DNA of 60,114 bases from Eubacteriales bacterium (GCA_045123255.1 JBGVIN010000106.1:1-60114); one strand, 5' to 3'; shown: positions 197 to 59,317, counted from the stretch's first letter. Translations and numbers: made by a program. The notes: generated by a model not told the origin, from the sequence alone.

Positions 197-275
197 GTTG
201 TTTATAGGTTATAGGAAGGGGTACTCCATCCCGCTTGTTTAATTCGGTTTTATTCACACAGGGCTTGGCAAATGA

Positions 276-1079
276 TTAAATTTTAGAAAAAAGCTCAAGC
301 CCCGATTTTTTCAAAAACCAAGTGATAAACCGCGGGGCGGCTTTGGGGAAGGTGCGGTAAAGAAAGCTAAGCAGTCTTGCGTCCTTGCCAACGACAATTC
401 TTTTCTTGCGCCTTCTTACACGGTTAACTATTTTGCGCGCCACCTTATCGGCATCCGCGCTAAACGAGCGCACTAAACGCGCTTCCTTGCCCGAAATTTG
501 TTGGTTTTTCATTATGTCGGTTTTCACAAAGCCCGGCAAAACGGACGAAAAGCTAATATCGCTTCTTTCACAGGCAAGTGCGGTTGTGAACGCGTTCAAG
601 GCACTCTTTGTCGAGGTATATGTACTCACGCCGCCAAACGGACAAAGTGCCGAGGCGCTTGACACGTTAACGACTGCTGCCCCATCATCAAGAATAGGCT
701 CGATTGCTTTGTAGGCATACGCACAGGAAAGAAAATTGAGTTTAACAATATTTTCAAGCTCGTCGATTTCGGTTTTATCAAACGACTTAAATTCGGGTAG
801 CGCACCTGCACAGTTGATTAAAGCGGATACCTTAATTCTGTTATTTACAAGATAGGAAAAAAGCTCGCCCCAACCGCTTTGCGAGGTAACGTCCAGGGGA
901 TACGGTATAAAGCTCTCGCCAAGCTCCGCCTTTACTTCCTGCAATCTTTCAAAGCCTCGTGCAAGTCCGACAACACGCGCGCCATATCTATTTATAAGAC
1001 AAGAAGCTATTGCTTTTCCGATCCCGCTTGATGCGCCGCTTATTACCACGGTTTTTTCGCGAAGGTCTAATTTTTTCAT
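276..1079 (-). CDS. Short-chain dehydrogenase/reductase (SDR)
   Basis: N-terminal GASSGIG Rossmann motif, NVSS, catalytic YxxxK (YTSTK); ATGA overlap with the upstream gene. Confidence 0.9.
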   Translation of the reverse strand: MKKLDLREKTVVISGASSGIGKAIASCLINRYGARVVGLARGFERLQEVKAELGESFIPYPLDVTSQSGWGELFSYLVNNRIKVSALINCAGALPEFKSFDKTEIDELENIVKLNFLSCAYAYKAIEPILDDGAAVVNVSSASALCPFGGVSTYTSTKSALNAFTTALACERSDISFSSVLPGFVKTDIMKNQQISGKEARLVRSFSADADKVARKIVNRVRRRKKRIVVGKDARLLSFLYRTFPKAAPRFITWFLKKSGLELFSKI

Positions 1080-1786
1080 TTTGATTTGCTCACTCCTCCG
1101 CTAAGAAATCTTATAGCGCGCTCGGGTGCATCCTTTGCATCGTACCACGGCTCGCTATCGTAGCGATAGTCGAATTTTTTGCAAAACCAACTGACGTCTC
1201 CCACCGTTTTTTCCAAAAACTTGTTTTGGACGTCGCAAATATCCTTGTAGAATTCGTCGTATTTGCGCTTGTCAAGCTCCCTGCCCGCTACGTCCATAAG
1301 AAGCGCGTAATGAGGGAGGCAAAAATATTTTTGTGCACGCAATTTTTCTCTAAATCCGCTCTCCTTATCGTAAAGAAGCACGACGGTTTCTATCATTTTT
1401 TCAAAGTGATTGTCAATTCGCTCGCAAATAAAGCAGCTGTTTACTATCTTATCTGCGTTTTTGTAGCTTTTCTTAGCTTTTCCGCCGAAGATAGCGTCGA
1501 AAAAGCCACCGTTTAATTTTCCCTTCACCTCGGGCAAATGGCTCTCTAAAATAAGTGCCAATGAAAGACGGTTATTTTTTTCAAGCATTTTTGAAAAATG
1601 GTCACGGCAGAAGCCCTTTTCGTTCATCAAAATTCTAACGCTTGGCTCCATCATTGACGAGCCGAGCGACATATCAACCTCTTTTTTCTCGAGAGTATCG
1701 TAAATTTTGCAAAGAGGACAGTCACATCCGCCCCTTTGGCAATTTTCAAACGCTTCATTGACGGGAATTGTGTAAATTTGTTCCAT
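1076..1786 (-). CDS. DUF6062-like Cys-rich protein
   Basis: CPLC, MMEPxxR..GFC..H, CFIC and FCLPH motifs resemble the Clostridial DUF6062 family (recognised from memory). Confidence 0.65.
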   Translation of the reverse strand: MEQIYTIPVNEAFENCQRGGCDCPLCKIYDTLEKKEVDMSLGSSMMEPSVRILMNEKGFCRDHFSKMLEKNNRLSLALILESHLPEVKGKLNGGFFDAIFGGKAKKSYKNADKIVNSCFICERIDNHFEKMIETVVLLYDKESGFREKLRAQKYFCLPHYALLMDVAGRELDKRKYDEFYKDICDVQNKFLEKTVGDVSWFCKKFDYRYDSEPWYDAKDAPERAIRFLSGGVSKSK

Positions 1787-1806
1787 ATTTTTTCACCTCG
1801 TGTGTG

Positions 1807-1835
1807 TTGACTTAATTATATTATAATGGTATAAT
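1807..1835 (+). promoter_or_regulatory. Sigma-A promoter for ogg
   Basis: TTGACT-17 bp-TATAAT with extended TG. Confidence 0.7.
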
Positions 1836-1868
1836 TATAAAAGTTCAAGAGTTTTTTAAGGGGGATTT

Positions 1869-2753
1869 ATGTACACTGTAAAAGAATACTCGCTTCAAAA
1901 CAAAATTCCGTACGTACACGTATCTGATATACCAAGGCTCAATATTTACAAGACGTTTGACTGCGGTCAATGCTTTAGGTTCGACCCTGTGTCGAAATTT
2001 GGACATAAATATGAGTTTGGCGGAGTTGCCTTCGGCAAATACGTTGTCTTTGCACAGGACGTTGACACAGAGCTTTTTGTTTACGGTGCAAGTGCAGAGG
2101 ATTTTTCCTCAATTTGGGCAAGCTTTCTATCTCTTGGCGAGGACTACGACAAGATAGATTCCCATATTATAAAAACCGTAAACGGCGAGCATACGTTGCG
2201 CGCAACTGAATATTCAAGCGGTATCAGAATTCTAAGGCAGGACTCTTGGGAAGCGCTTTGCTCGTTTATCATCTCTCAAAACAATAATATTCCCAGAATA
2301 AAGAAAATTATAGCACAAATGTCGGAAAAGTACGGGGACGTGGTTGAATTTGACGGTCAGTCATACTACACCTTCCCTTCGCCCGAGTCACTTTTTTCGG
2401 CAGGTGAGGCGGAAATTTTCGCACTTAAAACAGGCTTCCGCGCAAAATACATACACGATGCCGCATCTAAGGTTTTTGGCGGCGAAATTTCGCTTGATAA
2501 AATAAACGAATGTTCGTTTGAGGACGCAAGTGCTACGCTTTCAAAAATCAAGGGCGTAGGGCCTAAGGTAGCCTCGTGCGCGCTTCTTTTCGGATTTGGC
2601 AAAACGGAAGCCTTTCCCATCGACGTTTGGATAAAGCGCTCGCTTGACAATCACTTTGGCGGTCAGCTTGATATTGGTGCCCTTGGCAAGGCGGCAGGAA
2701 TTTTCCAGCAGTATTTATTTTATTATGAAAGATATAATCTTAGCGTTAAGTGA
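1869..2753 (+). CDS. ogg: 8-oxoguanine DNA glycosylase/AP lyase (OGG1-like, HhH-GPD)
   Basis: FDCGQCFR N-terminus, SFIISQNNNIPRI, HhH motif IKGVGPKVA, FPIDVW. Confidence 0.88.
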   Translation: MYTVKEYSLQNKIPYVHVSDIPRLNIYKTFDCGQCFRFDPVSKFGHKYEFGGVAFGKYVVFAQDVDTELFVYGASAEDFSSIWASFLSLGEDYDKIDSHIIKTVNGEHTLRATEYSSGIRILRQDSWEALCSFIISQNNNIPRIKKIIAQMSEKYGDVVEFDGQSYYTFPSPESLFSAGEAEIFALKTGFRAKYIHDAASKVFGGEISLDKINECSFEDASATLSKIKGVGPKVASCALLFGFGKTEAFPIDVWIKRSLDNHFGGQLDIGALGKAAGIFQQYLFYYERYNLSVK

Positions 2754-2767
2754 GCTTTATTTCATAA

Positions 2768-2820
2768 GCCAATCCCTCCGTCACGGCAGACCGTGACACC
2801 TCCCTTTGCACAAAGGAGGC
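2768..2820. repeat. Twin-hairpin REP-like intergenic element, copy 2
   Basis: Flanks identical to 29-77; first hairpin replaced by gtcacgg/caga/ccgtgac with pairing retained. Confidence 0.8.
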
Positions 2821-2849
2821 AGATTTTACGAAAGATATAATCAAAACAC

Positions 2850-2878
2850 TTGACTTAACTTATACTTTGATATATAAT
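2850..2878 (+). promoter_or_regulatory. Sigma-A promoter for kdgK
   Basis: TTGACT-17 bp-TATAAT. Confidence 0.65.
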
Positions 2879-2910
2879 TTTATTGAAAATATTTATAAAA
2901 GAGGTACGAT

Positions 2911-3936
2911 ATGAAAACAGTATGCTTTGGCGAAATTATGCTCCGCTTAAATCCGGCGGGATACACAAGATTTATTCAAACAGATACATTTGGCGCAACC
3001 TACGGCGGCGGTGAGGCAAACGTTGCGGTTTCTCTTGCTAACTATGGCATTGACGCATCCTACGTTACAAAGCTTCCAAGCCACGAGATAGGTCAAAGCG
3101 CGGTTAACTCACTCCGCAGATACGGCGTTGACACAAGCGACATCGTAAGAGGTGGCGAGCGCGTTGGTATTTACTACCTTGAAACAGGCGCATCACAACG
3201 TCCTTCAAAGGTTATTTACGACCGTGCATATTCTGCTATCGCTCTTGCAAAGCGTTCCGATTTTGATTGGGAAAAAATCCTTGACGGCGCAAATTGGTTC
3301 CACTTTACAGGAATTACACCGGCACTCGGCGGTGAGCTTCCCGAAATTTGCATGGACGCATTAAAGGTTTGCCGTGAAAAGGGCATCACCACAAGCTGCG
3401 ACCTTAACTACCGTAAAAACCTTTGGTCAACAGAGGAAGCAGGCAAGGTTATGGGCGAGCTTATGAAGCTTGTTGACGTTTGCATTGCAAACGAAGAGGA
3501 CGCTGAAAAGGTATTTGGCATAAAGGCGGAAAACACAGACGTTGATGCAGGCGTTGTTAACCACGAGGGTTACAAGAGCGTTGCTTCACAGCTCTCAAGA
3601 TGTTTTGGCTTCAAGCGCGTTGCTATAACACTTAGAACAAGCATTTCAGCAAATGACAACATCTGGGCAGCTATGCTCTACGATGCAAACGAAAACGAAT
3701 ACTACTTCTCACGCTCATATAACATCCACATCGTTGACCGTGTTGGTGGCGGTGACTCGTTCGGCGGCGGTCTTATCTACGCATCACTTATGAACAAGTC
3801 AAGCCAAGACGTAATAGAATTTGCGGTTGCGGCTTCTTGCCTCAAGCACACAATTATCGGCGACTACAACTTGGTTAGCGTAAAAGAGGTTGAAGGACTT
3901 ATCAAGGGCGGCGGAAGCGGACGCGTTCAAAGATAA
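2911..3936 (+). CDS. kdgK: 2-dehydro-3-deoxygluconokinase (PfkB family)
   Basis: FGEIMLRL, YGGGEANVA, GASQRPSKVIYDRA, DLNYR, VDRVGGGDSF. Confidence 0.9.
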   Translation: MKTVCFGEIMLRLNPAGYTRFIQTDTFGATYGGGEANVAVSLANYGIDASYVTKLPSHEIGQSAVNSLRRYGVDTSDIVRGGERVGIYYLETGASQRPSKVIYDRAYSAIALAKRSDFDWEKILDGANWFHFTGITPALGGELPEICMDALKVCREKGITTSCDLNYRKNLWSTEEAGKVMGELMKLVDVCIANEEDAEKVFGIKAENTDVDAGVVNHEGYKSVASQLSRCFGFKRVAITLRTSISANDNIWAAMLYDANENEYYFSRSYNIHIVDRVGGGDSFGGGLIYASLMNKSSQDVIEFAVAASCLKHTIIGDYNLVSVKEVEGLIKGGGSGRVQR

Positions 3937-3948
3937 TTACATAAATTT

Positions 3949-3978
3949 AAGACACAGGGTGTGCCCTGTGTCTTTTTT
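3949..3978 (+). terminator. Intrinsic terminator of kdgK
   Basis: aagacacaggg-tgtg-ccctgtgtctt followed by a T tract. Confidence 0.85.
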
Positions 3979-3979
3979 C

Positions 3980-4008
3980 TTGACAAAAAATTACTCATTT
4001 GATATAAT
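3980..4008 (+). promoter_or_regulatory. Sigma-A promoter
   Basis: TTGACA-17 bp-TATAAT with extended TG. Confidence 0.75.
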
Positions 4009-4030
4009 AAAATTGAAGGGAGATGATAAA

Positions 4031-4507: not shown

Positions 4508-4510
4508 AAT

Positions 4511-4535
4511 AAAGCACCGATTTTCGGTGCTTTTT
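4511..4535 (+). terminator. Intrinsic terminator
   Basis: aaagcaccga-tttt-cggtgctttt stem and T tract. Confidence 0.8.
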
Positions 4536-4548
4536 CTGTTGGAATTTA

Positions 4549-4633
4549 GATTATACACACATAGTGTGATGATATACAATGCTTTGCATTGATGAAATGC
4601 ACGCTATGCGTGGTGATATGCAACCTTCGGTTG
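4549..4633. repeat. Mini-hairpin array arm (linker RTGAWATR), 4 hairpins
   Basis: cacac/ata/gtgtg, caatgc/ttt/gcattg, cacgc/tat/gcgtg, caacc/ttc/ggttg joined by ATGATATA, ATGAAATG, GTGATATG. Confidence 0.85.
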
Positions 4634-4700
4634 ATTTTATTGTCTTTCATTAAAAGACAATAAAAAACGCGCCCGCTATTGCAGGCACGCCTTTATCAAA

Positions 4701-9326: not shown

Positions 9327-11189
9327 ATGAAGGACGGATATATTAAGGTTAAGGCAGCTTCGCCAAAGCTCGCGGTTGGCGACGTGTCCTTTAACAAGGA
9401 AGAAATTGTAAAGGAAATCAAAAAAGCGATTAGCGAGGACGTTAAAATTCTCGTTTTACCCGAGCTTTCCTTGACGGGAAAGAGTGCAGGCGAACAGGCT
9501 TTTAGCGGCGTTATACTAAACGCCTCGGAGAAAGCGCTTGAAAACATCAAATTTGCGACACAGGGTAGCGATATTTTGATTTTTGTGGGCGCTCCGCTTC
9601 AGTACAAGGGCGCAAATTATTCCTGTGCGGTTGCAATAAAATCGGGTGAAATTTTAGGCGTAGTTCCAAAGATGGGAAAAATGCCTTATTTTAAGGATTT
9701 CATAAAAATTGGCAGCGAAAAATACCCATTCGGCACAGATTTACTCTTTAGCTGCAACGAAATGAAGGATTTAACTATCGGAGTTGTTGTTGGAGATGCA
9801 GTTACCAACCCCTCCCCCAAGGGATTTTTCCTTTGTGAAAACGGTGCAACGGTCATAGTCAATCTTTCGGGAAGCTACGAGCTTGTGTCAAGTGAGGAAA
9901 TTCGTCGCGCTTGCTTCGTTTCAAAGAGCTACGCAACGAAGAGCGCATATATTGTTGCTAATCCAAGCGAGGACGAGTCAACGACGTCAAACGTTTATGC
10001 CGCACATAATTTGATAGTGGAAAACGGAGATATTTTGGCAGAATCCAAGCCGTTTGAGAAAAAAACAGGCGACTGTGTGTCTGAAATTGACGTTTCTTAC
10101 CTTCGAAGCAAGCGCAACGCAATCGACACGCGTACAGAAGCAATAACCGATATTTCATTCTCATTCAAGCTCCAAAAAACAGCTTTAACAAGAAAAATTT
10201 CCAAAACGCCTTTTTTTCCTGAAGGCAAGGAAGAACTGAAAAAGCACTGTGAAAAGATCCTCACAATGCAGTCACGCTCCCTTGCCAAAAGGTTGACTGC
10301 ATCATATTCAAAGGGAATGGTGCTTGGCATTTCAGGCGGACTCGACTCCACTCTTGCCTTGCTTGCCTGCGTAAAATGCGCAGACTATCTTGGATGGGAA
10401 AGAGAAAAAATCACCGCTATCACAATGCCTTGCTTCGGCACAACGAAGCGCACCAAATCAAACGCAACTGAGCTTTGCCGCGCACTTGGCGTTACCTTGC
10501 GCGAAATTGATATTTTTGAAGCGACACGCATCCATTTTAGAGATATTGGCCACGACGAAAGCGACCACAGTGTAGTTTATGAAAACGCACAGGCAAGAGA
10601 ACGCACGCAAATTTTAATGGACGTGGCTAACTCCCTTGGCGCACTCGTTATCGGCACGGGAGACCTTTCCGAGGTTGCACTCGGTTGGTCAACGTACAAC
10701 GGCGACCATATATCAATGTATAACGTAAATTCCGCGCTTCCAAAGACCTTAATTCGACACGTGGTCGAGCATTTTGCAAAAAATCACGGTGGAGAGGTAA
10801 AGGAAATTCTCCTTGACATTCTTGATACTCCCGTTTCCCCCGAGCTTCTCCCTGCAAAGGAAAACGGAGAAATTGAGCAAAAGACAGAGGACATTGTCGG
10901 CCCGTACGAGCTGCACGATTTCTTCATTTATAATTTCGTTGGCAAAAAATTTGCTCCGTCAAAGATTTACCGTCTTGCTCTATACGCATTCAACGGAAAA
11001 TATGACGGCGAAGTAATCTATAAATGGCTCACGGTGTTTATAAAAAGATTTTTCACGCAACAATTCAAGCGCTCCTGCTCACCCGACGGCGTGCGTATCG
11101 GCTCGGTTTCACTTTCTAAGAATGACTTTAATATGGTGAGTGATTTCTCTTACAAGACTTTTCTTGAAGAATTAGATGAAAACAAGTAA
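9327..11189 (+). CDS. nadE: Two-domain NAD+ synthetase (glutaminase domain apparently degenerate)
   Basis: C-terminal SGGLDST, ENAQARER, TGDLSE, PVSPEL, FTQQFKRS; N-terminal nitrilase fold with PEL but no CED motif. Confidence 0.9.
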   Translation: MKDGYIKVKAASPKLAVGDVSFNKEEIVKEIKKAISEDVKILVLPELSLTGKSAGEQAFSGVILNASEKALENIKFATQGSDILIFVGAPLQYKGANYSCAVAIKSGEILGVVPKMGKMPYFKDFIKIGSEKYPFGTDLLFSCNEMKDLTIGVVVGDAVTNPSPKGFFLCENGATVIVNLSGSYELVSSEEIRRACFVSKSYATKSAYIVANPSEDESTTSNVYAAHNLIVENGDILAESKPFEKKTGDCVSEIDVSYLRSKRNAIDTRTEAITDISFSFKLQKTALTRKISKTPFFPEGKEELKKHCEKILTMQSRSLAKRLTASYSKGMVLGISGGLDSTLALLACVKCADYLGWEREKITAITMPCFGTTKRTKSNATELCRALGVTLREIDIFEATRIHFRDIGHDESDHSVVYENAQARERTQILMDVANSLGALVIGTGDLSEVALGWSTYNGDHISMYNVNSALPKTLIRHVVEHFAKNHGGEVKEILLDILDTPVSPELLPAKENGEIEQKTEDIVGPYELHDFFIYNFVGKKFAPSKIYRLALYAFNGKYDGEVIYKWLTVFIKRFFTQQFKRSCSPDGVRIGSVSLSKNDFNMVSDFSYKTFLEELDENK

Positions 11190-20984: not shown

Positions 20985-21869
20985 ATGAACGAGCAAAAAA
21001 ACGAAAAAGGATGCACCCTGTGTCCGAGAAAATGCAATATTGACAGAAATTTATTGCGCGGTGTCTGTGGCGCTCCCGACGAAATTGTGGTGTCGAAAAT
21101 TATGCTTCACAAATGGGAAGAGCCGTCAATAAGCGGCACAAACGGAAGCGGAGCTATTTTCTTTTCGGGTTGTCCCTTAAAATGCGTTTACTGTCAAAAC
21201 AAAAAAATCAGTCACAAGTGCCGCGGTAAAAAAATAACGGTTAGCGAGCTTGCAAGCGAAATCTTAAAGCTACAAAAAATGGGCGCACATAACATAAATT
21301 TAGTCACCCCCACGCATTACGCCGACAAAATCATCGAGGCACTTTCCTTAATCAAGGGCGAGCTTAAAATCCCCGTGGTTTATAATACCTCCGGCTACGA
21401 AAGCGAGGAGCAAATTGAAAAAATTGCCGAGTACGTGTCTGTTTTCCTAACTGATATAAAGTATTTTTCACCCGACGCCTCTCTCAAATACTCACGCGCT
21501 AAGGACTACTACGTGGTTGCAAAGAGAGCGTTTGCAAAAATGCTTGAAACAGTCGGTACGCCAAAATATGATGAAAGCGGAATGATGATAAGCGGCGTTA
21601 TACTACGCCATTTAGTCTTGCCCTCTCTGCGCCGTGACTCCATTGCGCTTTTAGAGGATATTGCAAAAAGCTTTGACACCTCTTCCTTCGTTCTTTCCTT
21701 AATGAGCCAGTACACGCCCGAGTTTTGCGACGACGGCTTTCCCGAATTAAAGCGCCGTTTAACCACCTTTGAATATAACAGCGTACTTTCACGCGCAACC
21801 GAGCTTGGCTTCACGGGATATATGCAGGATTTTTCCTCGTCATCAACAAGCTTCACACCCGAATTTTAA
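20985..21869 (+). CDS. Radical SAM protein, PflX-like
   Basis: N-terminal CTLCPRKC, HxWEEP, CxxxCxxC (CPLKCVYCQN), NINLVTPTH, RHLVLP; start could be 20976. Confidence 0.82.
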   Translation: MNEQKNEKGCTLCPRKCNIDRNLLRGVCGAPDEIVVSKIMLHKWEEPSISGTNGSGAIFFSGCPLKCVYCQNKKISHKCRGKKITVSELASEILKLQKMGAHNINLVTPTHYADKIIEALSLIKGELKIPVVYNTSGYESEEQIEKIAEYVSVFLTDIKYFSPDASLKYSRAKDYYVVAKRAFAKMLETVGTPKYDESGMMISGVILRHLVLPSLRRDSIALLEDIAKSFDTSSFVLSLMSQYTPEFCDDGFPELKRRLTTFEYNSVLSRATELGFTGYMQDFSSSSTSFTPEF

Positions 21870-28470: not shown

Positions 28471-30948
28471 ATGCAAAAATTTAACGTCACGGGAATGAGC
28501 TGTGCAGCTTGCTCGGCTCGTGTTGAAAAAGCAATTTCATCAGTTTCGGGTGTTACCGACTGCTCAGTAAGCCTTTTAACGGGTGAAGCAACGGCAGATG
28601 GTACGGCATCGAGCGAAAGCATAATAGATGCAGTTAAAAAAGCAGGCTACGGTGCAAGTGTTGCAAGCACCCAAACGCTTGAGGATGCGCTATTTCGCGA
28701 TACTGAAACGCCGAAATTAAGAAAGCGTCTTATCATTTCGTCCTGTCTGCTCCTTGTGCTTATGTACTTTTCTATGGGCAGCCACCTCGGCATTATCCCT
28801 GCGTTTTTGTCGAGGGAGTATTTGGTTTTAGCATTTTTGCAGCTTACACTTTCTCTTTCCATAATTATAATAAATAGGAAGTTTTTCATAAACGGAGCAA
28901 GGGGAGTTATAAAGCGCTCTCCAAATATGGACACGCTTGTTTCTCTTGGCTCAGGCATTTCGTTTATTTACAGCCTCGTTATGCTCGTTTTGATGTGCGT
29001 GCGCCACGGCGATGCGGAATTTTTAGAACAAACGCTTCACAAGGGGCTGTATTTTGAGTCCGCCGCTATGATTTTGGTGCTTATCACTCTTGGAAAAATG
29101 CTTGAATCAATTTCTAAGAAAAAAACGACAAGCGCGCTTAAAAATCTTATCAAAATGAAGCCGAAAACCGCACTTGTTTTAAGAGATGGGAAGGAAACGG
29201 AGGTTTCAGTATCGGAAATAAAAATAGGCGATGAGTTTATTATCAAGGCGGGCGGAATTATACCCGTTGACGGATTTGTTATATCAGGGGAAGCATCAAT
29301 TGACGAGTCTTGCCTGACGGGTGAAAGCATACCCTGTGACAAATCAAACGGAACGAAGATTTACGCCTCAACCGTATGTAAATCAGGATATATCGTTGCG
29401 CGTGCCGAGGAAATCGGCGAAAAAACCGCAATTTCAAAAATAATCAAAACCGTGTCGGACGCGCTCGGCACAAAAGCACCTATTGCCAAAATTGCCGACA
29501 CAGTGTCTGGGTTTTTCGTTCCGGTTGTTATTTTAATAGCGATAATTTCAACCGTAATTTGGCTCTTATGCGGCAGTGAATTTGCATACGCGCTTGAGCG
29601 CGGAATTTCGGTTCTCGTTATCAGCTGTCCGTGTGCCTTAGGCCTTGCAACACCCGTTGCTATAATGGTCGGCGGCGGTATAGGTGCAAAAAAAGGAATT
29701 CTTTTCAAGGATGCAGGCAAGCTTGAGCTTCTCGGCAAATGTGAATGGGTGCTTCTTGATAAAACAGGTACAATTACACAGGGTGTGCCCGAAATTACCG
29801 ATATTATCCCCTTTGGTATAGACGAAAACGAGCTTCTTTCATATGCATACACTCTTGAAAAAATGAGTGAGCATCCGCTTGCAAGGGCGGTTATCGACTA
29901 CGCCGAGGAAAATTCCGTTAAATCCTTTGAAATCAGTAGCTTCAAAACTCTTATGGGAAGTGGCGTTTGCGGTGAAATTGACAAAAATACAGTATTCGGC
30001 GCAAGCTATTCGTACACAATTTCAAAAATCGGCGAAAGCAGAGAGCTAAAAGCGCATTTCGAGCGTCTTTCAAACGAGGGAAAAACACCGTTATTTTTCG
30101 TAAAACGCGACACTCCCCTCGGCATAATTGCCGTGCGCGACAAAATCAAGGACGATAGCAGGAGCGCTATCAGCGCGCTAAAGGAAATGGGACTTACCAC
30201 GTCTATGGTGACGGGCGACAACGAAAAAACCGCGTGTGCAATTGCCAAAAGCGTCGGTATAGATCACGTCATTTCGGAGGTAATGCCAAACGAAAAAGCC
30301 GCCGAGGTTACAAAAGCCAAATCAAACGGCAGGGTTATAATGGTTGGTGACGGAATTAACGACGCGCCAGCTCTTGCAACGGCTGACGTCGGTGTTGCCA
30401 TAGGTGCAGGCACGGACGTTGCAATAGATACCGCTGACGTGGTGCTTGTAAAAAGCTCGCTTTCCGACCTTGTTACCGCTATAAAGCTAAGCCGTGCAAC
30501 GCTAATAAACATTAAGGAAAACCTGTTTTGGGCATTCATTTATAACGTTATCGGCATTCCGCTTGCCGCAGGCGCATTTATTGCCGTATCCGGCGGAAAA
30601 CTCACACTTACCCCGATGCTTGGCGCTCTTTTGATGAGCTTTTCAAGCGTAAGCGTGGTTCTAAACGCATTAAGACTAAACTTATTTAACGAAAAGAAGC
30701 ATTATAAGCGCAGAAAAAAGAATATAAAGAAAAAGGAGAAAAGGGAAATGAACGTAATATTAAAGGTTGAGGGAATGATGTGCCCACACTGTGAGGCGCA
30801 CGTAAAGAAAGCACTTGAAGCCATAGACGGCGTATCCTTGGCAGTGGCAAGCCACACAAAGGGCGAGGTTGAAATAACGCTTTCAAAGGACGTTTCTATT
30901 GACGTTTTGAAAAAGACTGTAACCGAGCAGGGATATACCGTAAAATAA
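28471..30948 (+). CDS. copA: Cu(I)-type P1B ATPase with N- and C-terminal HMA domains
   Basis: GMSCAAC, TGES, CPC, DKTGT, SEHPL, GDGINDAP, YN and MxxSS, C-terminal GMMCPHC; start re-called at MQKF. Confidence 0.93.
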   Translation: MQKFNVTGMSCAACSARVEKAISSVSGVTDCSVSLLTGEATADGTASSESIIDAVKKAGYGASVASTQTLEDALFRDTETPKLRKRLIISSCLLLVLMYFSMGSHLGIIPAFLSREYLVLAFLQLTLSLSIIIINRKFFINGARGVIKRSPNMDTLVSLGSGISFIYSLVMLVLMCVRHGDAEFLEQTLHKGLYFESAAMILVLITLGKMLESISKKKTTSALKNLIKMKPKTALVLRDGKETEVSVSEIKIGDEFIIKAGGIIPVDGFVISGEASIDESCLTGESIPCDKSNGTKIYASTVCKSGYIVARAEEIGEKTAISKIIKTVSDALGTKAPIAKIADTVSGFFVPVVILIAIISTVIWLLCGSEFAYALERGISVLVISCPCALGLATPVAIMVGGGIGAKKGILFKDAGKLELLGKCEWVLLDKTGTITQGVPEITDIIPFGIDENELLSYAYTLEKMSEHPLARAVIDYAEENSVKSFEISSFKTLMGSGVCGEIDKNTVFGASYSYTISKIGESRELKAHFERLSNEGKTPLFFVKRDTPLGIIAVRDKIKDDSRSAISALKEMGLTTSMVTGDNEKTACAIAKSVGIDHVISEVMPNEKAAEVTKAKSNGRVIMVGDGINDAPALATADVGVAIGAGTDVAIDTADVVLVKSSLSDLVTAIKLSRATLINIKENLFWAFIYNVIGIPLAAGAFIAVSGGKLTLTPMLGALLMSFSSVSVVLNALRLNLFNEKKHYKRRKKNIKKKEKREMNVILKVEGMMCPHCEAHVKKALEAIDGVSLAVASHTKGEVEITLSKDVSIDVLKKTVTEQGYTVK

Positions 30949-36376: not shown

Positions 36377-37267
36377 TTAATATGCGTTTTTTTCCTTGCC
36401 GAATATTATTCTATCAATTCCGCTGAGCGTTAATTCTACCACGCCATCGGTTGTTAACGCCTTGATTTTTTTGTTCTCAAAGGAATAAGCCTTAGTCGTA
36501 CCGTCTTGGTAGTGAAGCACCGCTGTGTCGCTCGTATAATTGTGAATTACATCCATATACCAAGCACCCTGTGTCGCAAAATCGAGTATTGCAACCGCCA
36601 AAAGTTGTTTTCTTGTGCCGAAAATTCCCGAGCCTATAATTCTGTCGGCAGGGCGCAGCTCATTAAAAAATTTCGTTGACGCTTGACTTGTCGGCTTGCT
36701 TTCTCTTTCGATATAGTCAACTAAGTCCTCTATTCTGTCAAAAACAGGGCTACCCTCACTCACCCTTAGTGAATCGTTCTCTTCAATATAAACAACGCCG
36801 TTTATATAGACGTGTCCCGTCATATTCTCTTTAAGAAGCGAAATTGCACGTCTTATCTGTCTTATCGGCGACTTAAAATATTTGGTGTGAATTTCACCCG
36901 TATATGGGTCGCGCTTATGCTTTACAAACCCGTCCTCGGTTTCGTAAACGTCACCCTTCCAGCTCTTTATTTCAATGGCAAAAAGTGAGCCGCGATAAAG
37001 AAGCATACAGTCAATTTCCGCGTTTCCGTTTTCATTTAATATTATTATATTGGTTTTTATTTTCGCCTCAGGCAAAAGTGAAATAATATCATTGACCGCT
37101 TCGCGTTCGCCGAGCGTGCCGTAAATTTGCGCGTCGCTAAGTGGGGAAATATCCACCCTCTCTTTTTTTCGCGCATTATGGATTTTTCTGTCCTTTCTTC
37201 TTACCTCGCGCTTTTGCGAAAGCTCGAAAAAAATCTCCTTTATTTTTGCAAATAGATTTTTCAGCAA
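36377..37267 (-). CDS. NERD (nuclease-related) domain protein
   Basis: GTLGE, EIDCMLL, AIEIKSWKG, SPIRQ: PD-(D/E)xK-like NERD pattern; TTG start. Confidence 0.75.
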   Translation of the reverse strand: MLKNLFAKIKEIFFELSQKREVRRKDRKIHNARKKERVDISPLSDAQIYGTLGEREAVNDIISLLPEAKIKTNIIILNENGNAEIDCMLLYRGSLFAIEIKSWKGDVYETEDGFVKHKRDPYTGEIHTKYFKSPIRQIRRAISLLKENMTGHVYINGVVYIEENDSLRVSEGSPVFDRIEDLVDYIERESKPTSQASTKFFNELRPADRIIGSGIFGTRKQLLAVAILDFATQGAWYMDVIHNYTSDTAVLHYQDGTTKAYSFENKKIKALTTDGVVELTLSGIDRIIFGKEKNAY

Positions 37268-45850: not shown

Positions 45851-47929
45851 TCAACGTTTTGTCTTTTTTTCGTTTTTTCGGGGGGAGTGTCTGTTTTTCG
45901 GGGTATTTTTCGCTGGTTTTGCTCCCTTTGTCTGTCCAAAATCTTTTGAAAATTTCTTTGAATTTTTTGTGTTTTTAGGTGTATTTTTTGTGTCGCGGTG
46001 CGAATTTTTTGCATTTTTTGAATTTTTGCTTCCGCCGCCGCTTCCCTTTTTCGCACCTACTTCCTTAGTGTCCTTCTTCGCGTTTTTACCCGTTTGATTT
46101 ATACCAAAACGAGTGTTTTCCGCGCCGATGCGCATATCGGGCTTAACAAGACAGTCACCGCCGAAGCCTATCAAATCCTCGCGTCCTGCCAAGACAAGTG
46201 CTTCTCTTACAAGATTTCTGTTTTCAGGCTTTTTGTACTGTAAAAGCGCCCTTTGCATCAATTTTTCTCGGTAGTCAGTCGGGCAATATACGCTTTTTCC
46301 GTCAAGCGGATTTATTCCCGTATAGTACATAACTGTCGATGCCGTGCCGGGGGTTGGATAGAAATCCTGCACCTGCTCGGGATTTAATCCTATGCTCTTT
46401 AAGTAGAGCGAAAGCTCAACCGCATCAGACGGTGTGCTACCCGGATGCGAGGACATAAGATACGGAACTATATATTGCTCAAGCTTATATTCTCGGCAAA
46501 GCGCAAAATATTTTTCGCGGAATTTATCGTAAACCGCCACGCTCGGCTTACCCATGCATCTGAGCACGTTGTCCGAGCAATGCTCGGGTGCAACCTTTAG
46601 CTGTCCGCTAACGTGGTCGCGCACTAATTTTCTAAAAAACGCATCGCTCTTATCGTAAACCATATAGTCAAAGCGAATACCCGAGCGAATGAATACCTTT
46701 TTTACCTTAGGAAGCGATTCAACCGCCTTCAAAAGGTCTATGTATTCGGAGTGGTCAACCTCCAAATTTGGACACGGGGTCGGGGCTAAGCACTTTCTAG
46801 ACGTACAAACGCCATCCTTTAATTGCTTTTTGCAGGCAGGATAACGGAAGTTTGCCGTTGGACCTCCTATATCGTGAATATAGCCCTTAAAATCACTCAT
46901 TTCGGTGATGATTTTCGCTTCTTCCACAACGCTTTCTATGCTACGCGAGCGTACGCTTCTGCCTTGGTGAAAGGCAAGAGCGCAGAAGTTACAGCCACCG
47001 AAGCATCCGCGGTTATGCGTAATTGAAAATTTAACCTCGCTAATAGCAGGCACTCCACCCTCTTTTTCGTACACAGGGTGGTACGTTCTTACATACGGAA
47101 GACTATAAACCTTGTCAAGCTCTTCTCTTTCAAGCGGATAAGCGGGTGGGTTTTGAACGAGCTTTTTTTGGTCGTAATACTCAACTATCGCCTTTCCGTT
47201 TATTGCATCTTGGTTCTTGTACTGTATGCCAAACGCGCGTGCGTATTCACGCTTGTCCTCTTTTATTTTATTAAAGTCAAATTCTGCCGCTATCGGGAAA
47301 TGCACCTCATCCTCGCGTTTGCAAAGATATACGCATCCGCGCTCGGCACGAATTTTCTTTATCGGTACACCCTTATCAAGCAAGGTGGCAAGCCTTAAAA
47401 TAATCGACTCGCCCATACCGTACGTCAAAATATCGGCACGTGAGTCAACAAGCACGCTCCTTCTGATTTTGTCATCCCAGTAGTCGTAATGTGCAAAGCG
47501 TCTGAGTGACGCTTCAATACCGCCTATAATAATAGGCACATCCCCGTACGCCTCTCTTATTCTGTTACAGTAAACTATTACCGCGCGGTCGGGGCGATTG
47601 CCCATTTTTCCACCCGCGGAATAGTAATCATACGAGCGCCTTTTCTTTGAGGCGGTATAATGTGCCACCATCGAGTCAATATTACCCGCACTAACAAGGA
47701 AGCCGAGTCGCGGTCTTCCAAAGCGCTTAAAATCCTCGCAGCTCTTATAATCGGGCTGAGCAAGGAATGCAACTCTAAAGCCTGCGTTTTCAAGCACTCT
47801 TGTGATAATTGATGCGCCAAAGGACGGATGGTCAACGTACGCATCGCCGTTAACGTACACAAAATCGACCTCGTCCCAGCCACGAGATAGGCATTCATTT
47901 TTCGTTATCGGTAAAAACTGATTTTCCAT
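45851..47929 (-). CDS. YgiQ-family (UPF0313) radical SAM protein
   Basis: GDAYVDHPSFG, DSMVAHY, RGCFGGCNFC, KVAPEH, QDFYPTP; basic low-complexity tail. Confidence 0.92.
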   Translation of the reverse strand: MENQFLPITKNECLSRGWDEVDFVYVNGDAYVDHPSFGASIITRVLENAGFRVAFLAQPDYKSCEDFKRFGRPRLGFLVSAGNIDSMVAHYTASKKRRSYDYYSAGGKMGNRPDRAVIVYCNRIREAYGDVPIIIGGIEASLRRFAHYDYWDDKIRRSVLVDSRADILTYGMGESIILRLATLLDKGVPIKKIRAERGCVYLCKREDEVHFPIAAEFDFNKIKEDKREYARAFGIQYKNQDAINGKAIVEYYDQKKLVQNPPAYPLEREELDKVYSLPYVRTYHPVYEKEGGVPAISEVKFSITHNRGCFGGCNFCALAFHQGRSVRSRSIESVVEEAKIITEMSDFKGYIHDIGGPTANFRYPACKKQLKDGVCTSRKCLAPTPCPNLEVDHSEYIDLLKAVESLPKVKKVFIRSGIRFDYMVYDKSDAFFRKLVRDHVSGQLKVAPEHCSDNVLRCMGKPSVAVYDKFREKYFALCREYKLEQYIVPYLMSSHPGSTPSDAVELSLYLKSIGLNPEQVQDFYPTPGTASTVMYYTGINPLDGKSVYCPTDYREKLMQRALLQYKKPENRNLVREALVLAGREDLIGFGGDCLVKPDMRIGAENTRFGINQTGKNAKKDTKEVGAKKGSGGGSKNSKNAKNSHRDTKNTPKNTKNSKKFSKDFGQTKGAKPAKNTPKNRHSPRKNEKKTKR

Positions 47930-53350: not shown

Positions 53351-56300
53351 ATGGAAAACAATATAATTAACGGCGCAATACGGTATAGCTCTCAGTACCA
53401 AAAGCTTATCAAACGCTTTGACGAGCTTTTTGCCAAGGGAGAAAATCTGCCACTGCTTGTTGACGGTGTAAGTGACGGCGCGATATATTCGCTTCTATTC
53501 TCACTTACCGAGGATATTAAGAAAAGGACGAAATCTCCGCTTCTTATTTTAACAGGTGAGGAGCGCCGTGCGAACAAGCTGAACGAATATCTTAAAAAAA
53601 GCGGAATAAAAAGCGAATTTTATCCCGTACGCGATTTTAACTTTTATGATATTACCGCCTCTCACGACGTCGAGCATGAGAGGCTACGCGTGCTTTGCGG
53701 CATAATAACAAACGAAATAGATGCAGTAATTACCACCCCCGACGCGCTCACACAGTACACAGTACCGAAAAGTGTGCTTGAAAGCGAAATATTATCTATA
53801 AAAACTGACACTTCCCTTGACATTTCAGATTTTTGCGCTAAGCTTTTTAATATGGGCTACACAATAACCGACGCGGTGGAGGGCCCTGGTCAATACGCTG
53901 TACGTGGCGGAATAATAGACGTTTTCCCGACCAAGTGTGAGTATTTTGCAGACAAAAAGGCAATAGATGCACAAAAGCCGATAAGAATTGAGCTTTTCGG
54001 TGATGAAATTGACAGAATGGCAACGTTTGATATTGAAACGCAGAGAATGGACGAAAAAATCACCTCGTTCAAAATCACTCCGTCAAGAGAAATTGTTGCA
54101 AACGGTGAGCAGCTCAAAAAAATTGAGAGTGAAATTGAAGCACTTCTCGACCTTGCAACGGGGGAAGAGTCAATTAAACGATTAAACAGTGAGCTTTTAG
54201 CTATAAGACAGGGTGGCTATTCCCATTCCTTCTTTGACAAATATATCTCTTTGATTTATCCGCAAAAAAACTCACTTATTAACTATTTTAGCGACACCTC
54301 CTCGCTCATAATCTGTGACACCAACGGCGTTAAGGCAAAGGCGAAGGACGCACAAGCATATGAAAACGAAATTGTAAAGGGACTGCTTGAAAGCTCACTG
54401 CTCCCCTCAAAATACGCAGATTTTCGCGCCCCTGTGTCAATAATTGACAATTTTTCAAAATCTCATCAAACGATAAATATCGACACTTATATAATGTCGC
54501 GCTTCGATAAGGAGGGTGGGCTGTACCATTTTAACACAAAGGGCACGTCATTTGCAAACCACTCCGTCAGTGTTATACGCGACGACCTTGAATATTTCAC
54601 GAAAAACGGCTATAAAACAATTCTCGTTTGCGGCGGAGAGCAAGAGGCTAAGGGTACGATAAAATCCCTTCTCTCACTTGATATTCCCGCACGTGCATTA
54701 CTAAAAAAGGACAACTCCATAGAAAGCTTACCCGAAGGCGTTGTTTCAGTAATTAGCGACACCTTCCCTGAGGGATTTGAAATTCCCGAGGCTAAGCTAT
54801 CAGTAGTCGTACTTTCATCAAAGCAAACAAAGGAAAAGAAAAAGTCGTTCAAAAACAAGATTTTTGAAAAGAACGCAGGTGAGAAAATCCTCTCCTCCGC
54901 TGACTTGAACGTCGGTGACTACGTTGTTCACGTTAGCTACGGTATCGGTAGATATCTCGGTATACAGAACCTTCTTGTTATGGGTGCATACCGCGACTAT
55001 ATAACAATTCAGTACGCAGGCACGGATAAGCTTTATTTACCCGTTGACCAGCTTGATATGGTTGCAAAATATATCGGTGCCGGCTCGCTCGACGGTGACG
55101 TCAAGCTTTCAAAAATGGGTGGGGCTGAATGGAAAAAATCCACACAGCGTGCAAAATCCTCTGCAAAGGATATGGCAAAGGAGCTAATCGACCTTTACGC
55201 ACGCCGCCAAAGAATAGAGGGACACGCATTTTCGGGCGACTCACTCATTGAGGACGAGTTTGCCGCATCCTTTGAGCATGAGGAAACACAGTCACAAGCA
55301 TTTGCTATAAACGAAATTCTTAACGATATGCAAAAGCCGTACCCTATGGACAGAGTGCTTTGCGGTGACGTTGGCTACGGCAAAACCGAGGTTGCGTTCC
55401 GCGCCGCTATGAAGGCGGTTGCTGACAACAAGCAGGTTGCTATTTTAGTACCAACCACAATCTTGGCAATGCAGCATTACCAAACCGCGGTATCAAGATT
55501 TGCCGGCACGGGTGTCAATATTGGAATGATTTCAAGGTTCAGAACCGCAAAGGAGCAAAGCGCAACGCTCCGCTCACTAAAACGCGGTGACCTTGATATT
55601 ATCATAGGAACACACAAGCTTCTTTCCAAAAGCATTGAGTTTAAGGACCTCGGTCTTTTAATAATCGACGAGGAGCAGCGCTTTGGTGTTGCTCAAAAGG
55701 AAAAAATCAAAAACGCCTGGCCCTGTGTCGACGTTTTGACTCTTTCTGCCACTCCTATTCCGCGTACGCTTAGTATGGCAATGGGCGGAATTCGCGACCT
55801 ATCAATACTTGAGGAAGCGCCCGAGGGCAGAGTTGGCGTTCAATCCTACGTGCTTGAGCATGACGTAAATTTATTAAACGATGCAATAAAGCGAGAGCTT
55901 CACCGTGGGGGACAGGTTTTCTATCTGCAAAACGACACAAGCAAAATTTACCACACCGCAAGCGCACTTCAAGCCGCCTTTCCCGACGCGCGTATAGCCG
56001 TCGGTCACGGTCAAATGGACAGGGAGCAGCTTGAGAAAATTTGGCAAGAGTTGGTGCTTGGCGAGATTGATATTTTAGTCAGCACAACTATTATAGAAAC
56101 GGGAATAGATATTCCCAACGCTAACACCTTGATAATAGAAAACGCAGACAGAATGGGACTTTCTCAGCTTCACCAAATCAGAGGCCGTGTTGGCAGAAGC
56201 CACCGCCGCGCCTATGCGTTTTTCACATACCGTCGCGGTAAGGAAATTTCAGAAATTGCCGCTAAAAGGCTAAACGCAATTCGTGATTTTTGTGAATTTG

Positions 56301-56917: not shown

Positions 56918-57024
56918 GCTACATTTTTGCAAAAAGCTGAAAAACTCACACTTTCCCCGCCATTTTAATAAAAAAACAATACAGTCAATTATTTTTGACG
57001 CAAATAAACAAAAGGAGATTTACT

Positions 57025-58266
57025 TTGAAAAAAACAATTTGCCGCACCCTGTGTCTTTTATTCTTAGTAATTTTGATAATCCCATCTTTAACCGCCTGCA
57101 AAAATAAAAACGTTATGTACGAGCTTGGAGATTATCAAATAACAGAAAAGGAATACAATTATTTAATGGGAATGTTCAAAAAGAAGGTGCTTGTTCAATT
57201 TGACTCTTCCCTCACCGATGATAGCTTGGATTTGGAAATTTCCCCAGGTGTTAAGCTTGGTACGTATCTTGAAGCGAGATACCGCGAGGGCTTTGAGCAA
57301 ACCTTGATTTCTCTTTTATACTCACAGTCCCTGTTTGATGAGCTTGGTCTTTCGCTAACAGACGAGGAAAAGAGCCATATAAACGCCACAGCAACCGCCG
57401 TAGTTGCATATTACGGCAACTATAGCCTGAAGGAGTTCAATAAAATCGCCAAGCAATACGGCTTTGACGACAAGGCAATGCGCTCCGTTTACGAAATGCA
57501 ATATAAGGAAAACAAGCTTCGCGAGCATTTGCTTGGCAAAAACGATTCCAATATTCAGGAAAGCGACAGAGAATCTTATTACAGATACGCATATCTTCGC
57601 TACCAAACCTTGATAGTCAATACACTTTATAAGCTACACACAGATTCAAACGGTGAGGTTAAGTTCCTTTTGCTTGACGAATACGAAAAGGCAGAAAAGG
57701 AGCGTCTTGTATTAGAGCTTCGCGAGCTTCTTGTTAATAAAAATATGGATTTCGACTATATTTTATTAAAGGAAGACAAGAACCTATCCTATATGGAGCT
57801 TTGGGAAAAATATTCAGACGATAAATTTTACCCAAGCGGTCTTTATGAAAGCGCAAACCCCGATGCCGAGCAGCTTAATAACTCCAACGTTCTCTCCGCC
57901 GCTTACCAAAGCAAGCCAGGCGAGGTGAAGGTTGTTACCGCAAAGCGTTATTTCGAGGGGGACTCCTCACTTGAAGGCGAGGACGTGACCATAAAGCCGG
58001 GCGACTATTTTGAATACGGCTCTATTTTCGTACAACGCCTTGAGCTTGATAGCGGCGCGTATGACAGACGCGAAAGCGAAATTTTCTTCGGAGAGTCATT
58101 TGAAGCAGGCGTTGCAAATCACGCGTATTTCAAACATCTTGAAAAGCATCAAAACTCGCTCCCATACGAGGTAATGGTTTCTTCAAGAGTAAACAATTAT
58201 ACCTTTGCATCAGTTAAAGCAAACGAGCTTGACTACTACTATTTTTCAAGCTCTGACGAAAAATAA
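57025..58266 (+). CDS. Putative lipoprotein (possible PrsA/SurA-like foldase)
   Basis: TTG start 7 nt after aaggag, lipobox LTAC; the position after mfd is where PrsA-like genes often sit; no PPIase motif seen. Confidence 0.6.
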   Translation: MKKTICRTLCLLFLVILIIPSLTACKNKNVMYELGDYQITEKEYNYLMGMFKKKVLVQFDSSLTDDSLDLEISPGVKLGTYLEARYREGFEQTLISLLYSQSLFDELGLSLTDEEKSHINATATAVVAYYGNYSLKEFNKIAKQYGFDDKAMRSVYEMQYKENKLREHLLGKNDSNIQESDRESYYRYAYLRYQTLIVNTLYKLHTDSNGEVKFLLLDEYEKAEKERLVLELRELLVNKNMDFDYILLKEDKNLSYMELWEKYSDDKFYPSGLYESANPDAEQLNNSNVLSAAYQSKPGEVKVVTAKRYFEGDSSLEGEDVTIKPGDYFEYGSIFVQRLELDSGAYDRRESEIFFGESFEAGVANHAYFKHLEKHQNSLPYEVMVSSRVNNYTFASVKANELDYYYFSSSDEK

Positions 58267-58277
58267 AAAAATATGAT

Positions 58278-58313
58278 AAAAGAGCGATGGACAAAACCCA
58301 TCGCTCTTTTTTT
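58278..58313. terminator. Bidirectional terminator
   Basis: aaaagagcgatgg / ccatcgctctttt. Confidence 0.85.
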
Positions 58314-58365
58314 ATGAATTAAAAACTCACACCTGTGCGCCTTTTTCGGCACCCTGTGTCGATTA

Positions 58366-59274
58366 TTAATGTTTCCAATCGTAAGGAGTTACCTGATATA
58401 CGTAGTAATTAAGCCAGTTTGAATAAATCAAATTAGCAACGGAATACCAGTTTGGCACAACCTTGGTTTTTTCCTCGTCCTTAAAGTAGTTTTCGGGTGG
58501 GTCGATGTCAAGACCCTTGCCAAGATCGCGGTAATATTCGTTTTTCAAGGTGTCCTTGTCGTACTCCATATGACCCATTAAGAAAATACGTCTGCCATCG
58601 CGTGAGCGGACAACCGATGCACCTATTTTGTCAGAGCCTGCAAGAATGAGAAGGTCGTCAACTGCACGAATCGCTTCAATATCAACGGTTGTGTGACGGG
58701 AGTGTGGCATATAAAACTCTTCGTCGGTTCCCTTCAAAATCGGGTCAAAATTTACAAACTTTTTGTGCTTAAAAACTCCAAAAAGCTTCTTTGGCAAAAT
58801 TTCCTTGTTTAATCCGTAGTAGTAATGAAGTGCCGCCTGCGCGCCCCAGCAAATAAAGATTGTGCTTTGAACGTTTTTGTTTGCAAAATCTAAAATTTCG
58901 GTAAGCTCGTGCCAATACTTAACCTCTTCGAACTCCATCATTTCAACAGGCGCACCCGTAATTATCATTCCGTCAAAGTTTTGATTTTTAACCTCTGAAA
59001 AGGTTTTATAAAATCTTTGAAGGTGACCAAGCGGCGTGTGCGTGCCAACATAGCTCTCCGTGCCGATAAGTGTAACCTTAATTTGTAGCGGTGAATTTGA
59101 AAGAAGTCTAATTAGCTGAGTTTCGGTTTCGATTTTCGTTGGCATAAGATTAAGAATTGCAATTTCAATAGGACGAATGTCCTGTGTCATCGCTCTTTGC
59201 TGTGTCATAACGAAAATATTCTCGCTAAGAAGTGTGTTGTATGCAGGAATGTCCTTTGGAATAATAATGGGCAT
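58366..59274 (-). CDS. metA: Homoserine O-acetyltransferase (MetA/HTS fold)
   Basis: ILNLMP, TGAPVE (Glu at the acyl-specificity position indicates acetyl), ICWGAQA, PHSRH, GHMEY. Confidence 0.93.
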   Translation of the reverse strand: MPIIIPKDIPAYNTLLSENIFVMTQQRAMTQDIRPIEIAILNLMPTKIETETQLIRLLSNSPLQIKVTLIGTESYVGTHTPLGHLQRFYKTFSEVKNQNFDGMIITGAPVEMMEFEEVKYWHELTEILDFANKNVQSTIFICWGAQAALHYYYGLNKEILPKKLFGVFKHKKFVNFDPILKGTDEEFYMPHSRHTTVDIEAIRAVDDLLILAGSDKIGASVVRSRDGRRIFLMGHMEYDKDTLKNEYYRDLGKGLDIDPPENYFKDEEKTKVVPNWYSVANLIYSNWLNYYVYQVTPYDWKH

Positions 59275-59317
59275 TTCTTTCTCCTTTATTTATAAAATTG
59301 CCGACCCTGTGTCTATT

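Follow-up and report, generated by a model that had tools for sequence, protein, structure and literature searches.

Copies of the word in the window

The window analysed here is a 60,114-nucleotide stretch of DNA from a Eubacteriales bacterium (GCA_045123255.1 JBGVIN010000106.1:1-60114). It is contig C106 of a draft assembly of 2.0 Mb, 125 contigs and 42.6% GC, denoted G000 in the comparisons between genomes. Dispersed along it, inside genes and between them, are copies of a short asymmetric word, the 9-mer CCCTGTGTC (reverse complement GACACAGGG; 10-mer form ACCCTGTGTC), and of a sister word, GGGAGTGTC (reverse complement GACACTCCC; 10-letter form GGGGAGTGTC). The signal that they form is real, strongly selected, genus-wide and acts at the level of the DNA, and no description of it was found. 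As described below, a dyad-symmetric stretch of about 110–130 bp with an intrinsic tendency to bend appears to be centred on each copy of either word. The sites are listed here; "kept" refers to the same site in the comparison genomes G014 and G012.

1985..1993, + strand: the word, as gaCCCTGTGTC, inside an OGG-type 8-oxoguanine glycosylase gene, read D-P-V-S; not kept in G014, which has GCCCGTTTC.
3951..3972, unstranded: the inverted pair GACACAGGG-tgtg-CCCTGTGTC followed by a T-run, a terminator-type hairpin just beyond a pfkB-family kinase gene that ends at 3936; G014 keeps both arms.
9557..9565, − strand: the word, in the 5' part of an NAD synthase open reading frame (ORF); kept in G014; G012 has AACCAACGA, with 5 of the 9 bases different and the flanks conserved.
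21016..21024, + strand: the word, as gcaCCCTGTGTC, between an RNHCP-domain gene (ends 20979) and a radical-SAM gene; kept in G014, not in G012.
30109..30117, − strand: the sister word GGGAGTGTC, inside a P-type heavy-metal ATPase gene; kept in G012.
36567..36575, + strand: the word, antisense within a NERD-domain gene.
45883..45891, + strand: the sister word GGGAGTGTC, antisense, at the 3' end of a radical-SAM (Radical_SAM_N/DUF3362) gene; kept in G014 and G012.
54430..54438, + strand: the word, in mfd, as GCC CCT GTG TC, read A-P-V-S; the same codons are exact in 11 of 30 species.
55721..55729, + strand: the word, in mfd, within TGG CCC TGT GTC GAC; G000 and G014 lineage only, PDVD to PCVD.
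57047..57055, + strand: the word, within the opening codons of the gene that follows mfd (…C-R-T-L-C-L…); 9 species have a copy at almost this offset downstream of mfd.
58352..58360, + strand: the word, in the convergent gap between a 423-aa gene and that for homoserine O-succinyltransferase; kept in G014, lost by deletion in G012.
59305..59313, + strand: the word, in the gap between the homoserine O-succinyltransferase gene and a gene for a Cys/Met pyridoxal-phosphate enzyme; kept in G014 and G012.

The eleven copies of the 9-mer reported in a preliminary description of this DNA were all found where it had placed them, nine on the + strand and two on the − strand. Two placements are corrected: the pair at 3951/3964 is in the gap after the pfkB-family kinase gene, where it forms a terminator-type hairpin, and the site at 21016 probably lies between genes. 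An Rfam search of the window returned two tRNAs only, with no family match for the word.

Over-representation of the word and its sister

In the window, CCCTGTGTC/GACACAGGG occurs 11 times against 0.14 expected, a number reached in none of 100 dinucleotide shuffles, and the 8-mer core 14 times against 0.75. The whole genome holds 119 copies (61 on the + strand, 58 on the −), compared with 3.6 expected under an order-2 Markov model and 11 under order 4, making it the top 9-mer by over-representation. The 10-mer ACCCTGTGTC, with 96 copies against 1.0 expected, ranks first among the over-represented 10-mers at order 2. The word is sharp, variants with a single mismatch being barely enriched. Genome copies are not members of one repeat family, since their flanks are unrelated in sequence and have only their composition in common.

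A lineage-specific DNA-level signal had been suggested in the preliminary description, unless genome-wide counts should match a higher-order Markov expectation or the copies be confined to the window or to one repeat family. The counts given above agree with neither of these, and the suggestion is borne out by the genus-wide spread of the word and by its excess over codon-preserving shuffles (see below). A literature search for the word returned primer sequences only, and one on uptake sequences in Firmicutes or Clostridia found nothing relevant. The 9:2 strand skew noticed at first is true of the window but local, as it disappears in the genome (61:58) and the larger contigs show none. The three copies of the 8-mer alone, at 256, 29776 and 47071, do belong to the 14 cores counted in the window, but they lack the flank architecture and are probably chance occurrences or decayed sites.

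Among all GACACNNNN words only two stand out: GACACAGGG, enriched 33-fold, and GACACTCCC, enriched 17-fold. The latter is the sister word, of which GGGAGTGTC is present 52 times genome-wide against 3.1 expected; its flanks have the same architecture as those of CCCTGTGTC, peak for peak. The two words have GTGTC in common and differ by a 4-base complement, CCCT in one and GGGA in the other. At one orthologous spacer, upstream of a gene beginning MINKT, G012 has GACACAGGG; the counterpart in G000 and G014, GACACTCCT, falls short of the sister word by one base. Together, ACCCTGTGTC and GGGGAGTGTC make up about 170 sites per 2 Mb.

The sister word is found at 6–55 copies per same-genus genome, mostly 20–55, and the ratio of word to sister depends on the species (6 to 47 in G019, 96 to 52 in G000). 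A 400-kb sample of the distant congener G022 contains 15 copies of the word and 10 of the sister, with about one of each expected. Other sharp over-represented words were seen in this sample (L062-L081), namely AAGGACGGAA (19 against 0.8), TCAAGACCGT and ATCGAGGGCG, together with runs of 8–10 G; further word systems may exist in the genus.

Coding sequence does not account for the word

Gene calls were crude and ORF-based, with 90% of the genome coding. As a control, synonymous codons were shuffled within every gene, preserving proteins and codon usage, in 100 shuffles. The coding sequences (CDS) contain 71 copies of CCCTGTGTC against 5.3 expected after shuffling, with shuffle maxima of 6 in sense and 8 in antisense. 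Translations of the word (DPVS, APVS, PCVD, TLC, DTGS, ATQG and others) come from every frame and from either strand, and the word forces rare codons: GGG (4% of Gly), CTG (4% of Leu), GTC (8% of Val) and GTG (15% of Val). Protein coding does not account for the word, as the preliminary description had already argued from its frames and strands.

Flanking architecture

Alignment of all copies shows, in IUPAC code, an A-tract at −12..−8, an S-rich block at −6..−2, A, CCCTGTGTC, K, R, and WWTTT at +11..+15. The pattern is retained in 57 copies that lie deep in CDS, for example with 98% W at −9 and 93–95% W at +13/+14. Further out, the mean of 97 isolated sites has A/T peaks at −9, −18, −29, −40 and −52 on one side and at +13, +22.5, +33, +45 and +56.5 on the other, i.e. 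tracts with a period of about 11–11.5 bp, reaching to about ±55 bp around a symmetry centre at core position +2. The spectral power of the phased tracts was equalled by none of 500 random-position controls, on either flank. The near tracts are A-rich upstream and T-rich downstream of the word; the flanks are therefore dyad-symmetric around an asymmetric core. The 400-kb sample of G022 independently shows the same phased architecture. From the mean profiles of the 97 isolated and 57 deep-CDS sites, an example of the full element can be placed in the window:

54375..54495, unstranded: the word with about ±55 bp of A/T tracts phased at about 11 bp, wholly within mfd.

Some copies have the look of an A5-stem-loop-stem-T5 structure, and a general local hairpin was considered and rejected. 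Pairing beyond the core is at chance level (−3:+9 in 29 of 119 copies, about 33 expected), so the element is not a general hairpin.

Position and orientation

Sites avoid promoter-only regions and favour gene ends. Their density is 0.77 per kb in convergent gaps, 0.25 in co-directional gaps, where they lie close behind the upstream gene, 0.039 in CDS, and 0.023 in divergent gaps (1 site). By number, 71 copies of CCCTGTGTC (60%) are in CDS and 48 (about 40%) are intergenic, compared with an intergenic fraction of 9.5% of the genome; 22 of the 48 lie in convergent gaps and one in a divergent gap. The sister GGGAGTGTC is in CDS at 45 of its 52 sites (87%). Seven pairs of inverted copies, with the arms in either order, make hairpins of the terminator type. 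Some of the single intergenic copies also lie in or beside structures of a hairpin and a T-run; in-gene copies do not.

The in-gene copies of both words are evenly spread along genes, with 48 in sense and 69 in antisense. GC skew and gene orientation correlate in this genome (r = 0.83), and the leading strand can therefore be inferred. Relative to the local sign of GC skew, 52 sites are co-oriented and 67 anti; relative to the local gene-strand majority the numbers are 64 and 55. Large contigs are mixed (9:7 in C104, 4:3 in C10). This freedom of orientation with respect to genes, GC skew and replication strand is what is expected of a double-stranded DNA site.

The sites are about two-fold clustered: 25 spacings fall between 100 and 2000 bp, against 11.8 expected and a maximum of 22 in 1000 simulations. 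Clustering near the origin was considered and rejected, as no enrichment near oriC was seen and the dnaA contig C23 has a low density of the word. Five co-oriented copies in the window (54430, 55721, 57047, 58352 and 59305), in mfd and the genes that follow, are spaced near-regularly at 1291, 1326, 1305 and 953 bp; all five are present in G014, four of them within the mfd locus with similar spacing there. The regularity may be due to chance within the two-fold clustered distribution. Direct tandem pairs of the word, 42–76 bp apart, occur in intergenic gaps (C104:2306/2359, C9:7314/7376, C111:6442/6484, C104:17413/17489). A 53-bp unit is duplicated at the first of these, and such pairs may be local duplications of whole elements.

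Distribution and conservation among species

The 10-mer ACCCTGTGTC is present in 24 of 24 same-genus genomes of the first search, at 10–96 copies, while the reversed-word control gives 0–4 per strand. Sixteen other families of the order have 0–3 copies. The distribution of GGGAGTGTC is alike. Individual positions are also conserved. In the alignment with G014, 10 of 11 alignable sites in the window are intact, with ±30-bp flanks about 20% divergent; neutral retention of a 9-mer would be about 0.13 per site. With G012, 5 of 9 sites are intact, the flanks being about 31% divergent and the neutral retention about 0.035.

In Mfd orthologues from 30 species, GCC CCT GTG TC (APVS) is found at one position in 11, and GCA CCT GTG TC in 5 more. 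A second mfd site is restricted to G000 and G014, where a conserved PDVD has become PCVD through 4–5 base changes, and other lineage-specific mfd sites involve amino-acid changes too. In-gene copies arose by substitution in place, with length unchanged. To judge from these alignments, amino-acid changes have been accepted to create sites, as at the PDVD to PCVD position of Mfd.

Other repeats and viral sequences

Several other sequence families were seen beside the word. GTGTCTGTTT(T), also over-represented in the genome, is mostly internal to a separate repeated element; it was rejected as part of the motif, with which its overlap is limited to a shared tail, CCCTGTGTC-TG-TTTT. Contigs C2, C6, C7, C10, C23, C39 and C47 (e.g. 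C2:5552-5881) bear tandem arrays that repeat about every 22 bp and combine TGATGATATACA with a variable mini-hairpin; there are about 100 copies of the tag. Another repeated element, with at least 27 copies, has GTGTCTGTTTTTTAGACGCGACC and TTTTAGACGAGAATGTGTCTGTTTTTG as inverted parts about 100 bp apart and often breaks contigs; examples are C23:33904-34040, C14:8835-8970, C81:24846-24980 and many contig ends. It is probably the end of an insertion sequence or of a miniature inverted-repeat transposable element. TGTGTCTGTTTT is common to this element and to a subset of motif copies.

Viral contigs carrying the inverted pair were set aside as uninformative: of 12 matches, 11 have 48–72% GC, unlike the genus, and the twelfth is a 1-kb fragment. 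The IMG/VR contigs L085 and L089-L091 (67–72% GC) contain boxes of the GACACAGGG/CCCTGTGTC type in arrays, mostly with a step of 27 bp (…CCATTCGACACAGGGGAAACCCTGTGTCCATTCGACACAG…). One possibility is a GACAC-bearing array of operators in a genome like that of an actinophage.

Proposed reading and candidate reader proteins

From the words, their flanks, the selection on them, their placement and their spread in the genus, we infer a bound protein, wrapping of the flanks and a function. Our best reading, which we rate at about even odds, is that the two interchangeable words are sites on duplex DNA at which a protein or complex that bends or wraps DNA docks, to the benefit of chromosome topology or architecture. 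A sequence-specific protein would contact the common GTGTC/GACAC base by base, and might read the adjacent block of G3/C3 and A/T by its shape, for instance through the minor groove; such shape-reading would explain why CCCT and its complement GGGA are interchangeable. The same protein or a partner complex would then bend or wrap the flanks, with their A/T tracts every ~11 bp at about ±11, ±20, ±31, ±42 and ±54 bp from the dyad. For the most part the sites follow closely on gene ends, especially where two genes converge, and they also occur within genes. This placement points to a role in topology or architecture and away from promoter control, recombination hotspots, guidance of translocases and pilus-mediated uptake.

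Two proteins, gyrase and WhiA, are leads to the reader rather than findings. The gyrase motif of E. coli, as mapped by Topo-Seq, spans 130 bp, with a centre at −16:+19 and periodic arms to ±63/66, and is enriched downstream of transcription units and in BIME-2 repeats (PMC6379681). The elements described here resemble such a dyad-symmetric site of ~130 bp with periodic arms, their A/T peaks being symmetric to about ±55 bp (0 of 500 controls). On the other strand both words read GACAC-N-SSS (GACACAGGG, GACACTCCC), which agrees with a WhiA-type core, GACAC/GAYACRCY. WhiA acts as a monomer on asymmetric sites that may face either way, and in Streptomyces it reads GACAC (PMC3781837); its motif is GACACGCC in M. 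tuberculosis (PMC13473873) and GAYACRCY in Mollicutes (PMC11701221). In B. subtilis the places where WhiA binds the chromosome are uncorrelated with changes in gene expression, and cells that have lost whiA show altered compaction of the chromosome (PMC10714963). The gene whiA is present in this genome.

In a more specific and rather improbable form of the proposal, the genus would have some 100–200 sequence-addressed DNA-wrapping stations, mainly behind genes, where positive supercoils from transcription accumulate. The reader, a monomer and possibly WhiA acting through the helix-turn-helix domain that recognises GACAC, would attach to the word and place a wrapping machine, which might be gyrase, on flanks shaped for it. 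If true, this would give the unexplained non-regulatory role of WhiA in the nucleoid of Firmicutes a concrete DNA target and a mechanism.

A number of points weigh against the docking-site proposal. The reader protein is putative, and the lineage consists of uncultured metagenome-assembled genomes (MAGs). Copy number varies more than ten-fold between species, which is odd for an essential architectural site and fits molecular drive better. The roughly two-fold clustering of the sites shows no evident connection with oriC. As for the candidates, the centre motif of E. coli gyrase is degenerate rather than a sharp asymmetric 9-mer, and WhiA occurs throughout Gram-positive bacteria while the word is enriched in this genus only. 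A GACAC-based word was not found in a 316-kb sample of another family of the order (G037). A WhiA self-site and a site at the rpsJ promoter were both tried and rejected: no copy of the word lies on the whiA contig, the rpsJ promoter is without one, and the one GATACAC-type match in the rpsJ leader is close to the chance expectation.

Dispersed words written into genes against codon and protein preference are rare, and each one that is understood (Chi, KOPS, DUS/USS, parS, and the sites of Noc and SlmA) has exposed core chromosome biology. Here a word of a statistical strength like that of DNA uptake sequences (DUS; uptake signal sequences, USS, in Pasteurellaceae) occurs in a Gram-positive gut lineage without an uptake pilus, at the dyad of putatively curved DNA of about the length of a gyrase footprint; we did not find this combination described. 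It suggests a target for the unexplained chromosome role of WhiA, and the ten bases with 110 bp of flanks provide a precise bait for fishing the reader protein from organisms not yet grown.

Alternative explanations

An uptake or kin-recognition signal of the DUS/USS type, for which preferential uptake and recombination of word-bearing DNA would spread the word through genes and terminators, is unlikely, though much in the distribution speaks for it. The word is the most over-represented one, sharp, clade-specific and without strand bias, and appears in every frame, with rare codons and altered amino acids as the price. The seven inverted pairs form terminator-type hairpins, many positions are conserved between species, the shifts between the two words resemble dialects, and copy number varies widely, as drive predicts. 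Of 31 genomes, 29 have ComEC, a protein that on its own is common in Firmicutes that cannot be transformed.

It is the machinery that is missing, since nearly all known transformation systems need a pilus or pseudopilus. Among the 31 genus genomes, PF00437 (T2SSE, the ComGA/PilB-type ATPase) is matched over its full length (425 bits) only in a single fragmented MAG, on one of its contigs; the other matches are one in G044, which is partial, and three that are short and borderline (25–29 bits). Of the 13 high-quality genomes, 12 have none above the cut-off, the exception being G012 with a partial match of 28.7 bits. PF00482 (T2SSF, the ComGB/PilC platform) is absent from 30 of the 31. Both families do score in the control genomes, B. 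subtilis and L. lactis among them. The sole contig among the 31 genomes with full-length genes for a type II/IV secretion ATPase and a platform is G006:C183 (520-2918), which is either contamination of that MAG or a sporadic island.

Word density, at about 1 per 12–17 kb, also differs, that of DUS/USS being 10–20 times higher, and the flanks are dyad-symmetric to ±55 bp, while the tracts of USS are one-sided and DUS have none. The suggestion of an uptake sequence in the preliminary description thus fits how the word is distributed (in genes, in inverted terminator pairs, sharp and clade-specific) and fails on the machinery and the dyad-symmetric phased flanks; the element is probably not a pilus-dependent uptake signal.

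Very unlikely is the regulon of a global transcription factor, with the word as an operator, or a component of RNA terminator hairpins. The intergenic excess, the many intergenic copies in or beside a hairpin and T-run, and the fact that WhiA-type proteins are transcription factors in actinomycetes would favour it. The near-absence of sites from divergent gaps (1 of 48 intergenic copies, against 22 in convergent gaps) does not, nor do the 60–85% of copies that are in genes and evenly spread, the free orientation relative to the transcript (48 sense, 69 antisense), flanks without base-pair covariation beyond the core, and the lack of an Rfam family match.

Spread by insertion of a small mobile element or of a palindromic repeat like the repetitive extragenic palindromic (REP) sequences is highly improbable. 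The word is high-copy and genus-specific, and some palindromic pairs stand at gene ends as REP sequences and bacterial interspersed mosaic elements (BIME) do. Its flanks are alike in composition and not in sequence, in-gene copies were made by substitution in place, and most copies are single and non-palindromic. REP/BIME are extragenic imperfect palindromes spread as units, while 60% of CCCTGTGTC and 87% of GGGAGTGTC copies lie in CDS.

A polar signal, Chi (read by AddAB) or the FtsK/SpoIIIE guides KOPS and SRS (FtsK-orienting polar sequences and SpoIIIE recognition sequences), had been suggested by the over-represented 8–10-mer, by a reverse complement ending in AGGG and by the local 9:2 skew; it is hardly credible, and the element is not Chi or KOPS, given the 61:58 split of the genome, the mixed orientations within big contigs (9:7, 4:3), the lack of association of orientation with GC-skew sign (52 to 67) or gene-strand majority, and flanks phased on the duplex that are irrelevant to enzymes scanning one strand or translocating along DNA.

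Comparison with known systems

Like Chi and KOPS, the word is a dispersed, over-represented short genomic word; unlike these strand-polar signals, it is without polarity. REP and BIME sequences are likewise dispersed and over-represented, and REPs are also found at gene 3' ends, but they are extragenic palindromes linked to RAYT transposases, in contrast with the copies described here, most of which are single and in genes.

The Neisseriaceae DUS (dialects of GCCGTCTGAA; PMC3630211) and Pasteurellaceae USS (AAGTGCGGT with AT tracts) are also sharp, clade-specific and highly over-represented words, found on both strands and in all frames, with codon and amino-acid cost tolerated, inverted terminator pairs, partly conserved positions and variant words; the helically phased AT tracts are a further likeness to USS. 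The present system differs in its host, a Gram-positive clostridial lineage with no Com or type IV pilus ATPase or platform, in a density 10–20 times lower, in its two coexisting words that differ by a 4-base complement, and in tracts that are two-sided and dyad-symmetric to ±55 bp.

With WhiA sites the words have in common the GACAC core and the asymmetry, a likeness of 5–7 bases. The protein is near-universal in Gram-positives while the word is genus-specific, and phased flanks have not been reported for WhiA sites. The known centre motif of gyrase is long and degenerate, in contrast to the exact asymmetric 9–10-mer with a period of ~11–11.5 bp seen here, where binding or cleavage by gyrase is putative. 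In overall form, however, the element is like the gyrase motif and strong gyrase sites (SGS), as seen in the E. coli Topo-Seq motif, the Mu SGS and the BIME-2 REPs (PMC6379681): a segment of ~110–130 bp with a centre and two arms in which A/T and G/C alternate periodically, enriched downstream of transcription units and in intergenic 3' regions, and for which orientation is immaterial.

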